Shown in pieces: positions 2 to 37,789 of a DNA stretch of 64,000 bases. The stretch is from a virus (lineage: Duplodnaviria > Heunggongvirae > Uroviricota > Caudoviricetes). Where the stretch lies: the IMG/VR virus record IMGVR_UViG_2974574300_000001, positions 20,420 through 84,419 of that record. The stretch is one strand, 5' to 3'. How positions within the stretch are numbered: the stretch's first letter is position 1; every line of letters begins with the position of its first letter. Made by a program: the position numbers and the translations under genes. The notes under the pieces are model-generated. The model was not told where the DNA came from. It saw only the letters and a program-made list of their open reading frames with translations, and searched no databases.

Positions 2-5694
<5,693 letters not shown>

Positions 5695-20350: not shown

Positions 20351-20773
20351 ATGCAGAAAATGTTTGTTCACCCAGACATAGCTGACTTTGTTAGAGCTTT
20401 GCAGAAGTTGGAAGAACTTGACATTGCTGCTCAACGGGAATATGCTCACCATCACAGGAGAATGGTTGATATACAACATGAAATAGAGTTGTCTGAAAAC
20501 TATGAAGATGACTTAAAATGCTCTGTATTTGAGCATATGAAAGATGTTGCTACAGCGAGACGTAAAGCTAAAGACACAGTTGCTTTACTAGATTCTCTTA
20601 AAAAGAGGTTGCAAAGTGGTACAGACCTGTGTAATCTAGCGTCACTGATTAACGATGTTGAAACTTCTTGGGATAGGCACTATTATCCACGTTCTGAAAA
20701 GACACTTGACTTTTCTTCATCCGAAAACTTAAAATGTTCTAGAAAGAAACTTAACCAACTGAGAGAGAAATAA
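20351..20773 (+). CDS. hypothetical protein
   Basis: 140 aa ORF opening the + strand replication block. Confidence 0.4.
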   Translation: MQKMFVHPDIADFVRALQKLEELDIAAQREYAHHHRRMVDIQHEIELSENYEDDLKCSVFEHMKDVATARRKAKDTVALLDSLKKRLQSGTDLCNLASLINDVETSWDRHYYPRSEKTLDFSSSENLKCSRKKLNQLREK

Positions 20774-33288: not shown

Positions 33289-33530
33289 TGACTTATGTAA
33301 TTTACTCCAAAACTGGATGCCCTCAGTGCGAGACCGCAAAGAATTTTGCAAAAGCTCGTGGTATTGACCATGTTGTGAGAATGTTAGGGCAGGATTATGA
33401 GCTATCAGAACTAATGGATATTGCACAGATGCCAGTTCGTCAGATGCCATTCATCATGAAAACTGATGGACAAAACCTAAAACCTGTTGGGACGCTACAG
33501 AATTTTATGGCAGAGGTGAATAATGCTTAA
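33288..33530 (+). CDS. glutaredoxin/NrdH-like redoxin
   Basis: 80 aa with CPQC active-site motif near the N-terminus. Confidence 0.65.
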   Translation: MTYVIYSKTGCPQCETAKNFAKARGIDHVVRMLGQDYELSELMDIAQMPVRQMPFIMKTDGQNLKPVGTLQNFMAEVNNA

Positions 33531-33729
33531 ACGCCTTTGGGAAGGTTTGGTTGTTGATGCACCAGCTATTGTGATTGGTATGCTTATTGTTAACCTATTT
33601 ACTGACTTTGAACAAGGTTCATTGTTTGGAGCCATGTTACTATGGGTTATCTTTGAAATATTAGAGATACAGTTAGGTATCACTGAAAACCTAAGAGAAC
33701 TCTTTGCGAAGTTTTCTAAAAAGATTTAA
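33523..33729 (+). CDS. small membrane protein
   Basis: 68 aa, two hydrophobic segments. Confidence 0.3.
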   Translation: MLKRLWEGLVVDAPAIVIGMLIVNLFTDFEQGSLFGAMLLWVIFEILEIQLGITENLRELFAKFSKKI

Positions 33730-33736
33730 AATGAAA

Positions 33737-33758
33737 GGGTCTCTTCGGAGACCTTTTT
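33737..33758 (+). terminator. rho-independent terminator
   Basis: gggtctc-ttcg-gagacc followed by ttttt. Confidence 0.6.
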
Positions 33759-33777
33759 AGCATGTAAAGGGGCAATA

Positions 33778-34974
33778 ATGAACAAAGTACAGATTATTAA
33801 AAAGAATGGCTCACTCGAAGAACCTGATATCAAAAAAGTTTTAGCAGCAGTCACAAAGTCAGCTAACAGAGTTGGTTATAAAGAGCTTCCACCAGATGTT
33901 ACTCAAGCTCTTGAGTCAGCATTTATGAGGATTCTGGTAAAGTCCACTAAGCAGAATAATTTACTCATTTCAGTAAATGATATTCACAGTATTGTTGAGG
34001 GTGCTTTGGCAGAAGTCAATCACGAGATTTATGAGTCTTACTCAACATATAGAAATTACCGTAAAGAAGTTGCTCAGAATTGGGATGAACTCTACCAGAA
34101 GACCAAAGATACACTCTTCTTAGGTGACCGAGAAAACGCTAATTTTGACAGCAGTTTAATTTCTACAAAAGGTTCAATTATTCGTGGTTATCTGACTAAA
34201 GAAATCTTTAAACAGTACCATTTAACACCAGAGGAACTTGAAGCCATTGAAAAAGGGTTTATCTATATCCATGATTTAAGAGACCTAATTTTTGGTGGTA
34301 TCAACTGTTGCCTGTTTGACATTGGTAAAGTCCTGAAAGGTGGCTTTGAAATGTCTGGCATTGAATATTGTGAACCGAAGTCTGTACTGTCAGCCTTACA
34401 GGTTATTGGTGACGTAGTTCTTTCAGCAACTGCACAGCAATTTGGTGGCTTTACTTTAGCAGAGATTGATAAGGTACTTGTGCCGTATGCTAAGAAGTCT
34501 CTACGCTATCATGCTGAGAAAGCAACAGCTTATGGTATTCCTAAAGAACATTACCACAACTATGTCATGGAGCAGCTACAGATTGAATTAACTCAAGGTT
34601 TTCAGTCTCTTGAAATGAAACTAAATACTGTACCTTGTAGCCGTGGTGATTTTGCATTCACAACTTTGACATTCGGGTTGCTTGACTCAGATATGTCTAA
34701 TGAAGATAACCGACTGCAATACATGATTGCGAGCACTCTCCTAGATGTTCGTATGAATGGACAAGGTAAGAGCAAGAAGCCTGTTGTATTCCCTAAATTG
34801 GTTTATATTTATGACCAGAAGAGACACAATGAGAATATCTGTCAAGGCCACCTGTACAGTAAAGCTATTGAGTGTTGCTCTAAAGCTATGTATCCAGATT
34901 TCTTAAGTGTATCTGGACATGGTGCTGTAGCAGAGGCTTTTGAGCGTTCTGGCAAGGTAATTTCCCCGATGGGT
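33778..34974 (+). CDS. nrdD: anaerobic ribonucleotide reductase (class III), 5' exon
   Basis: 399 aa beginning with an ATP-cone-like N-terminus; frame ends ...VISPMG then stop at the proposed intron start. Confidence 0.75.
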
Positions 34975-35716
34975 TAACAGGCTCTATAGCTCATCTAAAA
35001 CGTGCCTAAACAGGGAAACTCTACAGATGTAGACAATCCTGTGCTAAATGATGTACGATGTAAGAAACTATACAACATAGGAGTCTTACATGCCAAACTA
35101 TCACGTCACTGAAGATGGAAAAGTCTTTAGGGAAAATGGTGTAGAGCTTACGCAGTGGAAATCCAACACTGGGTATATGAAAGTGAGGTTTTACGGTAAG
35201 AAGAATCGTGACATGTATGTCCACAGGTTAGTTGCTGAGAAATATGTACCTAACCCAAATAATCTTCCAATTGTAAAACATAAGGACGATAACAAACTAA
35301 ATAACCACGCATCTAACTTAGAATGGGGTACTCATTCTGAGAATGCTAAAGAAGGTTATGAGAACGGATGCTACAAGTTCCACAAGCGTTCATATGCCGT
35401 GAAAGCCACACACAAAGTGACAAAGGAAGTTATTGTTGCTAAGTCAATACGAGAGTTATCCAATATACTTGGACACAATCGCAAGACCATCTCTTCAATA
35501 TTGAAGGGTGTAAAAGAGCATAATAACTTCGAATATGAGTTTGAATACATCTAAATGCCGAACGACTAACCGTGATGAATGTAGCGGTGTAGGGTCAAGC
35601 GACTCGAAATGGTACGCTACTTAGAAATAAGTAGAAGATATAGTCTGGACTTACTGGCGACAGTAAGCAGCTTGAATAAAGCGGGGTAAGCTTAGCGAAC
35701 TTACCTGAACAACAAG
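34975..35716 (+). mobile_element. putative group I intron in nrdD carrying an HNH endonuclease ORF
   Basis: 742 nt insert; upstream exon ends in T, insert ends in G; splicing gives ...VISPMG-CRAFLSPYHNEYGEEFYVGRANIGAVSLNLP and a 714 aa product. Confidence 0.6.
35090..35554 (+). CDS. intron-encoded HNH homing endonuclease
   Basis: 154 aa with VHRLVAEKYV...KHKDDNKLNNHASNLEWGTHSEN (HNH-type His/Asn motif). Confidence 0.6.
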   Translation: MPNYHVTEDGKVFRENGVELTQWKSNTGYMKVRFYGKKNRDMYVHRLVAEKYVPNPNNLPIVKHKDDNKLNNHASNLEWGTHSENAKEGYENGCYKFHKRSYAVKATHKVTKEVIVAKSIRELSNILGHNRKTISSILKGVKEHNNFEYEFEYI

Positions 35717-36664
35717 TGTAGAGCATTTTTATCACCATACCATAACGAATATGGTGAAGAGTTTTATGTAGGTCGTGCTAACATTGGTGCTGTATCTTTG
35801 AACTTACCAATGATTTACCAGTATTCTAAAGAGAATGGCTTAGATTTCTGGAAAGAGCTTGATAAGTACCTAGAAATGATTCGCAGCTTCCACAAGAAAC
35901 GTTACGAAATGATTGCTAATATGCCAGCAAGTTCTAACCCTCTTGCATTCACACAAGGTGGTCTGTACAAAGGGAATAAGAAACCTACTGACAAGGTTGG
36001 CTGGGATATCGTGAAGTCCTTCACAGCTTCTTTTGGGGTTACTGCGCTTGATGAGCTAGATGTTCTTGCTGAAGGTAAACGACTTCATGAAGTTGGAAGC
36101 TGTAGTTTTGCATATGATGTTCTGGAATATATCAACATGAAGACTGAAGAGTTTAAAAATGAAGATGGCTTCTTATATGCAGTCTATGGCACTCCAGCAG
36201 AATCACTTTGTGGAACTCAGCTAAAACAGTTCAGAGATATGTTTGGCGTTATCAAAGGCGTTTCTGACAAGGAATACTTTACAAACAGCTTCCATATGAA
36301 TGTTGCAGCCGACATTACACCATTTGAGAAGCAGGACTTAGAAGAACCCTTCTTCCATATCTGTAGAGGCGGCAGAATCCAGTATGTAAGAGTGGCTAAT
36401 CCAGAAAACTTACCAGCACTTAAGAGTTGTATTACAAGAGGGATGTTGAAAGGTTTCTATCAGGGACTTAACTTTGACTTAGCAATCTGTGAGCATTGTG
36501 GCAACAGACCAAAGGCTGATGTTGAAGAATGTGAGGTTTGTCATTCACACGATATCTCTGTGATTAACAGGGTGTGCGGGTACTTGTCATTCACAAAAAT
36601 TAAAGGTCAGTCTCGAATGAATGACGCTAAGATGGCAGAAATTAAGGATAGGGTTTCTATGTAG
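35717..36664 (+). CDS. nrdD: anaerobic ribonucleotide reductase (class III), 3' exon
   Basis: Frame open from 35696; contains a four-Cys cluster and C-terminal glycyl-radical motif RVCGYL. Confidence 0.75.
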   Translation, partial: CRAFLSPYHNEYGEEFYVGRANIGAVSLNLPMIYQYSKENGLDFWKELDKYLEMIRSFHKKRYEMIANMPASSNPLAFTQGGLYKGNKKPTDKVGWDIVKSFTASFGVTALDELDVLAEGKRLHEVGSCSFAYDVLEYINMKTEEFKNEDGFLYAVYGTPAESLCGTQLKQFRDMFGVIKGVSDKEYFTNSFHMNVAADITPFEKQDLEEPFFHICRGGRIQYVRVANPENLPALKSCITRGMLKGFYQGLNFDLAICEHCGNRPKADVEECEVCHSHDISVINRVCGYLSFTKIKGQSRMNDAKMAEIKDRVSM

Positions 36665-36671
36665 AATACAA

Positions 36672-37229
36672 ATGAATTACGAACTAATATATAATGCAAT
36701 TATTAAGAAGGCACATTCTGAAAGGGGTGTGCCTCTTACATACTACAAATGTCAAGGTAAGGGTTATGAAAGACACCATATCATACCAGTGTGTCTAGGT
36801 GGCGATAAAATTAGTGGAGATAATATTGCTTTACTTACACCTAGAGAGCATTATGTAGCTCATAAATTACTGGTTAAGATGTATCCAAACAATCATAAGT
36901 TATGGTTTGCATGGAACAGGTTAGCTCATGATGGCCTAGATAGGAAAATATCATCCAGAGACTATGAAAAGGTAAGGGCTTTGAACTCGAAAGCTTCATC
37001 CATTGTGAATAAAGGTAGGGTTTTCACTGAAGAACATCGAAGACGATTAGGAGAATCTCAAATAGGTAATACAAAATCAAAAGGTTGTAAAAGGTCTATA
37101 GAAACAAGGAAGAGGATGTCAGAAGCCGGAAAAAAGCCAAAGAAAAAGAAAACTTGCCATCATTGTGGTATGACTGGTGGTGCTGGTAACATGACTCGAT
37201 ATCATTTTGACAATTGTAAGAAAAAATAA
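36672..37229 (+). CDS. free-standing HNH homing endonuclease
   Basis: 185 aa from ATG at 36672 (track start 36621 overlaps nrdD); GYERHHIIPVCLGGDKISGDNIALLTPREHYVAH HNH core, basic C-terminus. Confidence 0.6.
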   Translation: MNYELIYNAIIKKAHSERGVPLTYYKCQGKGYERHHIIPVCLGGDKISGDNIALLTPREHYVAHKLLVKMYPNNHKLWFAWNRLAHDGLDRKISSRDYEKVRALNSKASSIVNKGRVFTEEHRRRLGESQIGNTKSKGCKRSIETRKRMSEAGKKPKKKKTCHHCGMTGGAGNMTRYHFDNCKKK

Positions 37230-37242
37230 CCTTATGTAAAAC

Positions 37243-37272
37243 TTGACAAGGCGGTGTAGGTCTTGATAGGCT
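37243..37272 (+). promoter_or_regulatory. sigma70-like promoter upstream of nrdG
   Basis: cttgacaagg -35 box with a weak -10 (ataggc/taggct) 17-18 nt downstream. Confidence 0.3.
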
Positions 37273-37303
37273 TACATCACCTTTTTATTGGTGAGGTAAC
37301 TAT

Positions 37304-37789
37304 ATGAATTACATGGAGATTAGACCATTTGACACAGCTAATGGTGAAGGGGTTCGTGTAAGCCTCTTCGTAGCTGGTTGTAAGCATCACTGTGAAGGCT
37401 GCTTTAACAGGGAGTCTTGGAAGTTTAATGCTGGTAAAGAGTTTACTTATGCAAACCTTTACGGGATTCTAAGACTTTTGGAAGATGATTCTTTAAGTGG
37501 ATTATCTATTCTTGGTGGAGAACCACTAGATGACCGTAACGTTGAAGAGGTCACAAAGATTTGCCAGAAGGTAAAGTCTATCTACCCAGAAAAATCTATC
37601 TGGCTCTGGACAGGTTTTCAGTTACACGAAAAAATTCACCTAGATGTGATGAAATATGTTGACGTGGTGATTGATGGTAAGTATGATTCATCTAAACCAA
37701 CAGTTAAACCATATCGTGGTTCTGATAACCAAAACCTCTGGAGAAAAGAGTATGGGTGGCAAGGTGATTGTCAGTGGAGAGCCGAGTAA
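37304..37789 (+). CDS. nrdG: anaerobic ribonucleotide reductase activating protein (radical SAM)
   Basis: 161 aa with GCKHHCEGC (CxxxCxxC radical-SAM cluster motif); next to nrdD. Confidence 0.8.
   Translation: MNYMEIRPFDTANGEGVRVSLFVAGCKHHCEGCFNRESWKFNAGKEFTYANLYGILRLLEDDSLSGLSILGGEPLDDRNVEEVTKICQKVKSIYPEKSIWLWTGFQLHEKIHLDVMKYVDVVIDGKYDSSKPTVKPYRGSDNQNLWRKEYGWQGDCQWRAE

Follow-up and report, generated by a model that had tools for sequence, protein, structure and literature searches.

A 64,000-nucleotide stretch of DNA from a virus of the Caudoviricetes (IMG/VR record IMGVR_UViG_2974574300_000001, positions 20,420 to 84,419), referred to below as the window, was analysed at and around nrdD, the gene for class III ribonucleotide reductase. 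The analysis indicates that a mobile group I intron, related to the td intron of phage T4 and carrying its own homing endonuclease gene, interrupts nrdD immediately ahead of the catalytic cysteine codon, a reading to which we give a probability of roughly 0.92. In sequence comparison, bases 33700-37300 of the window share 99.3% identity with Salmonella phages VSe11 and VSe102 and 98.9% with phage Mushroom, and the source of the window is assigned to Felixounavirus, the Felix O1-like myoviruses. The parts of the interrupted gene, in window coordinates, are the following (aa, amino acids; nt, nucleotides; ORF, open reading frame).

33778..34974, plus strand: nrdD exon 1; 399 codons with the ATP-cone and the N-terminal half of NrdD; Pfam ATP-cone and NRDD matches
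34975..35716, plus strand: predicted group I intron; 742 nt, td-like (subgroup IA2), beginning with TAA and ending ...CAAG
35090..35554, plus strand: predicted HNH homing endonuclease ORF of 154 aa, I-HmuI-like, in the P6 loop of the intron; HNH_3 match at 41.2 bits (cut-off 24.8); PHROG 59
35717..36664, plus strand: nrdD exon 2; 315 codons and a stop; first codon that of the catalytic Cys400; glycyl-radical motif RVCGYL

Reading frames across the interruption and the empty site

The ORF that covers exon 1 (33778..34977) ends ...GKVISPMG and is then closed by TAA at 34975-34977, the last exon base being T34974 and the stop codon being made up of intron bases 1-3. In the frame of exon 2 there is a TAG at 35693-35695, from 35696 onwards the frame is open, and the TGT codon for cysteine begins at 35717. 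Joining 34974 to 35717 reads SPMG|CRAFL across the junction and yields a protein of 714 aa that ends in the RVCGYL motif. The two halves match positions 1-250 and 264-560 of the 562 positions in the NRDD Pfam profile and, as they cover complementary parts of it, together make up one NrdD. A preliminary description of this region, made from the letters and their reading frames, had placed the end of the upstream ORF, the opening of the downstream frame and the 714-aa junction at exactly these positions, and in all three respects it was borne out.

An uninterrupted nrdD of 714 codons is found in phage Felix O1, in which the DNA across the junction reads ...CCGATGGGT|TGCAGAGC.... The joined window protein is identical to Felix O1 NrdD at 699 of 714 positions with 0 gaps, residues 1-399 from exon 1 being part of this gap-free alignment. 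The comparison of the fused protein to an intronless NrdD had been suggested as a check in the preliminary description, and the joined product agrees with the Felix O1 protein in length. Intronless nrdD also occurs in phages wV8, adrianh and garuso, and Felix O1 and these three carry the precise empty site. Nucleotide alignments put the boundaries of the insert at 34974|34975 and 35716|35717. A T stands on either side of the 5′ boundary, which in DNA comparison alone leaves a slide of 1 nt, the mRNA being identical both ways; the terminal G and the U·G pair that are required of a group I intron fix the boundaries at the positions given. The correct annotation would accordingly be one spliced NrdD of 714 aa, join(33778..34974,35717..36664) in window coordinates.

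Splice-site pairings and ribozyme core

The elements of the predicted fold were located on the window sequence as follows.

34968..34974, plus strand: P1 5′ strand, GAUGGGU; U34974 stands in a U·G wobble with G34989 and marks the 5′ splice site
34982..34995, plus strand: internal guide sequence; CUCUAUA (34982-34988) forms P10 with exon 2 and GCUCAUC (34989-34995) forms P1 with exon 1
35001..35058, plus strand: 5′ half of the core; P3 5′ strand 35001-35006; P4 35010-35015/35037-35042; P5 35020-35024/35029-35033; P6 5′ strand 35043-35044; P6a 5′ strand 35050-35055
35058..35091, plus strand: P6b hairpin; AUGUAAGA (35058-35065) with UCUUACAU (35084-35091)
35546..35716, plus strand: 3′ half of the core, P6a to P7.2; P6a 3′ strand 35546-35551; P6 3′ strand 35557-35558; P7 5′ strand 35564-35568; P7.1 35569-35572/35585-35588; P7.2 35592-35596/35601-35605
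35546..35716, plus strand: 3′ half of the core, P3 to P9.2; P3 3′ strand 35611-35616; P8 35617-35623/35628-35634; P7 3′ strand 35641-35645; P9 35650-35656/35661-35667; P9.1 35670-35673/35679-35682; P9.2 35685-35690/35700-35705

A U·G pair at the 5′ splice site is a hallmark of group I introns. In the window this pair closes a P1 of 7 base pairs (bp) between GAUGGGU (34968-34974) and GCUCAUC (34989-34995). Adjoining the P1 guide strand, CUCUAUA (34982-34988) forms a P10 of 7 bp with UGUAGAG, the first seven bases of exon 2 (35717-35723), and the last base of the intron is G35716, the terminal G (omega-G). The preliminary description had pointed out that the upstream exon ends in T and the insert in G, in keeping with the rules for group I splice sites, and both bases are indeed found in these roles. 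A P1 pairing with the same arrangement is present in the introns that Vibrio phage F96 and Escherichia phage nieznany carry at the same nrdD site. In the F96 intron changes in the exons are mirrored in both P1 and P10, the P10 partner beside the guide sequence being GGCA, which matches the UGCC at the start of exon 2.

Helices P3 to P9.2, with P3/P7 as a pseudoknot, were drawn on the window sequence and tested for covariation in an alignment of 10 sequences. Besides the window these were nine homologues, namely the allele of RPN213, the td intron of phage RB5, and td-like introns carried by Vibrio phages F96 and S4-7, Escherichia phage nieznany, three Aeromonas phages and Pseudomonas phage PhiPizzaParty. 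In this alignment 94.1% of cells pair, as compared to 34-43% when the partners are shifted by 1-3 columns. Compensatory changes on both sides are seen in 45 of the 63 pairs, and not one of 500 shuffles equalled the real alignment on any of the five measures. P3 pairs at 100%, five of its six pairs covarying, P4 and P5 are 88% and 93% paired, and P7, the helix with the guanosine-binding site, does not vary among the 10 sequences. P7.1 and P7.2 both pair and covary. All core helices are intact in the window copy. Unconstrained folding to minimum free energy of an allele without the ORF, that of phage REP11, recovered P3, P4, P5, P6, P6a, P6b, P7.1, P7.2, P8, P9, P9.1, P9.2 and P10 (z = -3.4).

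Subgroup IA2 of the group I introns is defined by the extra helices P7.1 and P7.2 between P7 and the 3′ strand of P3. The nrdD intron is assigned to this subgroup, that of the T4 td, nrdB and sunY introns, by its P7.1 and P7.2 and its relatedness to the T4 introns. With core helices, the U·G pair in P1, a terminal G and P10 all present, the insert is classed as a td-like group I intron that would be expected to self-splice.

Rfam scoring of the window copy and of ORF-less alleles

The preliminary description had also suggested an Rfam search for group I introns, and this gave a divided result. At the gathering threshold, which is 50 bits for Intron_gpI (RF00028), there was no Intron_gpI match in the window. 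A permissive local scan by E-value found the family in two pieces that flank the ORF, one of 33.1 bits (E = 2e-6) and one of 15.6 bits; the window copy falls below the threshold because the ORF in the P6 loop splits the match. Natural alleles without the ORF, which match the window intron at 97-99% identity in what they have kept of it, pass the threshold at 55.4 bits (REP11) and 60.4 bits (RPN213). As a control, the ORF-containing td intron, a proven self-splicer, was scored and was also found below the gathering threshold. Since the ORF-less alleles pass and td fails in the same way, the negative result most probably reflects a limit of the model with large loop insertions and is not taken as evidence against an intron. 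The earlier suggestion of a putative group I intron is strengthened on four counts, by a covarying core, by the splice-site pairings, by the empty site and by ORF-less alleles that pass Rfam.

The whole-window E-value scan with Rfam, together with a search for the P7 motif, gave no second intron within the 64-kb window beyond the nrdD copy.

The intron-encoded HNH endonuclease

The 154-aa ORF at 35090..35554 had been read as an HNH gene in the preliminary description, and the HNH_3 match, well above its Pfam cut-off, agrees with this. Its product aligns to the structure of I-HmuI (PDB 1U3E) from query residue 3 to 151 and chain residue 12 to 168 (E = 4e-9), and has a weak match to NUMOD1/helix-turn-helix (HTH) at the C-terminus. 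The HNH motif retains its His and Asn, and where I-HmuI has an Asp before the catalytic His, the aligned residue is Lys. The product is a predicted I-HmuI-like HNH homing endonuclease, probably an active one. It is 52% identical to the HNH ORF of the nieznany intron and 40% identical to that of the F96 intron, both at the same nrdD site, and the presence of homologous HNH ORFs in same-site introns argues that ribozyme and endonuclease travel as a unit tied to the target site.

ORF and ribozyme overlap at both ends of the reading frame. An AGGAG ribosome-binding site (35079-35083) lies in the P6b loop and the 3′ strand of P6b overlaps the start codon (35090-35092), while the last two sense codons, UAC AUC (35546-35551), are the 3′ strand of P6a. 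P6 folding could be disturbed by translation of the ORF and translation by the folding, and to see a regulatory effect in these overlaps is speculation.

Distribution and mobility within the genus

About 247 records of Felixounavirus phages match the joined exons. Roughly 59 of these contain at least 80% of the 742-nt element, intron and ORF together, and about 35 match the ribozyme parts only, at an identity of at least 90%, which corresponds to an ORF-less intron and is an estimate from identity bands. The remaining records, about 150, are intronless. Dozens of phages share the ORF at 93-100% nucleotide identity. The ORF-less introns of REP11 (316 nt) and RPN213 (292 nt) differ in their deletion end-points, which means that the ORF was lost at least twice while the ribozyme was kept; such loss is what a homing endonuclease gene would be expected to show in its decay phase. 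Among the records are also some labelled Campylobacter phage A126, Campylobacter phage A13b and Staphylococcus phage SA1, which contain a Felixounavirus nrdD at 93-96% identity and are probably mislabelled or contaminated assemblies.

The nrdD alleles of phages Alf5 and LinBro are mosaics. They differ from the window in exon 1, from -500 to -100, by 8-20 mismatches per 50 nt and are almost identical there to the intronless garuso. Their introns nevertheless depart from that of the window at only 10 of 742 positions (98.7% identity), and exon 2 shows no difference over its first 100 nt. In every intron-containing allele examined, about 10 substitutions are clustered in the first 50 nt or so of exon 2, and all comparisons of intron-plus to intron-minus alleles gave 10-11 mismatches at exon 2 +1 to +50 and 0-3 in the neighbouring 50-nt blocks. 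The substitutions at +1 to +50 are mostly silent, a few altering residues 408-411. The mosaic pattern indicates gene conversion driven by the endonuclease, with co-conversion of the exon, and suggests that the endonuclease target lies within the first 50 nt or so of exon 2. Patchy distribution in the genus and a flanking exon stretch that is carried along mark the element as a likely mobile intron.

Salmonella phage ST11 (MF370225.1) shows, around position 700 of sequence L014, an imprecise loss of the intron, in which the TAA is kept and the first nine bases of exon 2 (TGTAGAGCA, encoding Cys-Arg-Ala) are missing. With the residual TAA and the deletion, nrdD ends early and lacks the catalytic Cys. 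The deletion may be real and inactivating, in which case nrdD would be dispensable in culture, or it may be an artefact of assembly.

Proposed mechanism and alternative explanations

In the pre-mRNA the internal guide sequence would pair with the end of exon 1 as P1, with the U·G pair at the splice site, and a free guanosine bound in P7 would attack after U34974. The guide sequence would then also hold the start of exon 2 through P10, and the 3′-OH of exon 1 would attack after the terminal G35716, to give a ligated message ...CCGAUGGGU|UGUAGAGCA... that should encode the intact NrdD of 714 aa. Without splicing the enzyme would lack its catalytic Cys, because exon 1 stops before it and the first start in exon 2 is a TTG at 35798. 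In a mixed infection the I-HmuI-like enzyme would be expected to act on nrdD alleles that have no intron, cutting or nicking them close to the insertion site. If the damage is then repaired from an intron-containing genome, the intron would be copied in along with some 50 nt from the start of exon 2, a process of homing with co-conversion.

Several points weigh against this account. We infer splicing, the activity of the endonuclease and its target from sequence. The window copy scores 33.1 bits against the Rfam threshold of 50, for which the ORF in P6 accounts, the td control failing as well. The structure was drawn from the window sequence itself, which inflates the percentage of paired cells relative to the shifted controls; the counts of compensatory changes are independent of that. 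The evidence from mosaics is based on 11 sequences. Lastly, nrdD may be dispensable in the laboratory, as in ST11, so that selection for splicing could be weaker than in a gene that is essential.

Three other explanations were weighed. An endonuclease cassette might have cut nrdD into halves that are translated separately and, without splicing, assemble to give an active enzyme, for which nrdA of Aeromonas phage Aeh1, split by mobE, is a precedent (PMC3653736). GenBank records do annotate two separate NrdD coding sequences (CDSs) and an HNH gene, and published descriptions of the split nrdD go no further than a homing endonuclease that interrupts it (PMC4837284). Nevertheless, we consider this explanation extremely improbable, as the group I core of the insert is complete and covaries, P1, P10 and terminal G being in place, as the ribozyme is kept at 97-99% identity in alleles that have no endonuclease gene, and as exon 2 offers no start before Cys400, the annotated TTG at 35798 being such that 27 residues including the catalytic Cys would be dropped. 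A split of the Aeh1 type was on these grounds, ribozyme present and start codon before Cys400 absent, rejected. An intein is excluded by the TAA directly after exon 1 and by the TAG at 35693-35695, which closes the exon 2 frame inside the insert. It is also very improbable that the insert is a decayed relic that does not splice, with nrdD a pseudogene in the carrier phages. The destructive deletion at the same site in ST11 would make loss of nrdD tolerable and the Rfam score of the window copy is below threshold, but this score has a mechanical cause, both exons are open and encode a protein 98% identical to Felix O1 NrdD, and the exons that flank the junction remain in frame across the alleles examined despite a divergence in exon 1 of up to 40% per 50 nt. 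Every core helix is moreover intact in the window copy, with pairing maintained by compensatory changes across the homologues.

The remaining explanation concerns mobility only. The intron could splice while its HNH gene is no longer active, inheritance then being vertical or by ordinary recombination. The ORF-less derivatives that arose at least twice (REP11, RPN213) and the Lys in place of the Asp before the catalytic His of I-HmuI speak for this, whereas an intact ORF with the His and Asn of the HNH motif conserved, its 93-100% nucleotide identity across dozens of phages, and a near-identical intron with some 50-100 nt of exon 2 in the divergent exon 1 background of Alf5 and LinBro, which fits gene conversion driven by an endonuclease, speak against it. 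On balance we regard an inactive endonuclease as unlikely and prefer the mobile intron with a functional homing endonuclease.

Two further roles for such an intron are put forward tentatively and we are inclined to doubt them. The HNH enzyme may be a weapon between co-infecting Felixounaviruses that cuts intronless nrdD in the stretch of about 50 nt in exon 2 that is recoded in intron carriers. Separately, the site before the Cys codon, combined with an ORF that overlaps P6a and P6b, could tie production of NrdD to translation or to growth conditions.

Neighbouring genes in the window

In this part of the window nrdB is followed by glutaredoxin, a small ORF, the two pieces of nrdD, an HNH gene and nrdG, the last two being the following.

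36672..37229, plus strand: predicted free-standing MobC-like HNH endonuclease gene between nrdD and nrdG; NUMOD3 motif; PHROG 655
37304..37789, plus strand: nrdG, encoding the NrdD activase; Fer4_12 and Radical_SAM matches

The product of the HNH gene is 29% identical to T4 MobC (E = 1e-13), the alignment beginning at residue 1 of both, and T4 mobC lies in the same gap between nrdD and nrdG. This alignment also backs the start of the free-standing HNH gene that the preliminary description had recognised before nrdG. Felix O1 has unrelated small ORFs (118-120) instead of an HNH gene in its nrdD-nrdG gap, and the gene at 36672-37229 looks like a second, independent insertion of a mobile endonuclease in the same operon, outside the intron. 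A scan of 33500-37400 for promoters and terminators gave no excess over chance and is uninformative on expression of the endonuclease gene.

No Rfam family, tRNA included, reached its gathering threshold anywhere in the 64-kb window. For Felix O1, 22 tRNA genes have been reported (PMC3185647), and the tRNA cluster is presumably located outside the window.

Earlier reports and implications

Felix O1 was reported to be without introns (PMC3185647), which is correct for that isolate. The nrdD genes of phages UAB_Phi87, HB-2014 and JH2 were described as 'split' by a homing endonuclease gene (Bardina et al. 2016, PMC4837284), and a 2023 paper mentions 'two introns' from a scan of Felixounavirus SPJ41 for non-coding RNA, without detail (PMC9951933). 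No account was found in the searchable literature that presents the nrdD element as a group I intron and sets out its splice sites, its structure or signs of homing, and two NrdD CDSs are listed in every record with annotation that was inspected. The split gene had already been reported, and the element is an ordinary member of a familiar type of phage intron. Existing knowledge of group I introns is unchanged by these findings, the main value of which lies in a correction of annotation and in a system for the study of homing. Two 'NrdD' fragments and a stray HNH gene are listed in dozens of Felixounavirus genomes to which the correction applies, and many of these phages are candidates for use in phage therapy or biocontrol. 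As for homing, the genus contains a natural series of alleles, comprising intronless genes, intron with endonuclease, two independent ORF-less introns and one imprecise deletion. In easily grown phages of E. coli and Salmonella such a series makes a convenient system for the cycle of invasion, decay and loss and for co-conversion.

Comparison with known systems

In NrdD of T4, Cys290 is the thiyl-radical cysteine, at the tip of the finger loop. The insertion site in the window lies between Gly399 and Cys400, and the Cys codon at 35717-35719 aligns with this residue (PDB 1H78 and related; counted along the alignment). The site before the thiyl-radical Cys codon is occupied in three unrelated phage groups, a further case of the rule by which mobile introns come to lie in codons of the highest conservation and catalytic importance.

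The closest likeness among the T4 introns is to that of td, which is of the same ribozyme type. The 3′ half of the window intron (P7-P9.2, about 160 nt) is approximately 71% identical to td, and the 5′ core has nearly the same sequence (CUAAACGGGGAAC...GACAAUCCCGUGCUAAAU in td). P7.1, P7.2, P9.1 and P9.2 are found in both, as is an exon 1 that ends GGGU and is followed by an in-frame UAA. Both introns have an ORF in the P6 loop and both reside in a nucleotide-metabolism gene of a virulent enterobacterial myovirus. They differ in host gene, which here is nrdD and not td, and in endonuclease, which here is HNH as opposed to the GIY-YIG enzyme I-TevI. No P2 is evident in the window intron, in which just UAAAA lies between P1 and P3.

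T4 also has a group I intron in nrdD itself, the sunY intron with I-TevII, and, like the window, an HNH gene between nrdD and nrdG (mobC). The T4 intron is inserted inside codon 180 (...QAYE|YEVN...), whereas the window site corresponds to T4 289|290, about 110 codons downstream, and I-TevII is by annotation a GIY-YIG enzyme whereas the window ORF is HNH. With site and endonuclease family both different, identity of the window intron with the T4 nrdD (sunY) element was rejected.

I-HmuI, the endonuclease encoded in the intron of the DNA polymerase gene of Bacillus phage SPO1, nicks one strand. The window endonuclease belongs by sequence to the same family, with a near-full-length match that includes the HNH_3 catalytic motif, and the two systems differ in host gene, phage lineage and ribozyme subgroup context. 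That enzymes of this kind can harm a co-infecting relative which has no intron was shown for another phage intron-encoded endonuclease, gp210 of PhiPA3 (Birkholz et al. 2024, PMC11620839), and td-like introns occur in the phiKZ-like PhiPizzaParty. For Felixounaviruses the cost to a competitor is possibly small, nrdD being probably non-essential in aerobic growth.

Group I intron cores of the td-like type are widespread in other phages and mostly unannotated. In S4-7 such a core is positioned between fragments of a DNA polymerase and in 4L372D between fragments of a terminase, while in phiA009, phiA047 and PhiPizzaParty the flanking ORFs are annotated as hypothetical proteins only. Two cores lie close together in Aeromonas phage phiA009 (~1440-1600 and ~1620-1955 of sequence L008) and in Pseudomonas phage PhiPizzaParty (~1690-1940 and ~2180-2545 of sequence L010).

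The same MG|CR site of nrdD is occupied in Escherichia phage nieznany, a Phapecoctavirus, where the intron is bounded as ...AGTATGGGT|AAAC...ATAATG|TGTAGAAG, and in Vibrio phage F96, where the boundaries read ...TATATGGGT|TAAG...GGGATG|TGCCGA. The nrdD of F96 differs in having a second interruption further upstream; the two lie at 724-1884 and 2390-3140 of sequence L005, each with an HNH ORF, and it is the downstream one that is homologous to the window intron. The nieznany and F96 introns share with that of the window a td-like core and homologous HNH proteins. Phage families and exon sequences are different, and P1, P10, P3, P6a and P8 differ by compensatory changes. By these comparisons the introns of the window, nieznany and F96 are best grouped as one site-specific family of homing elements.

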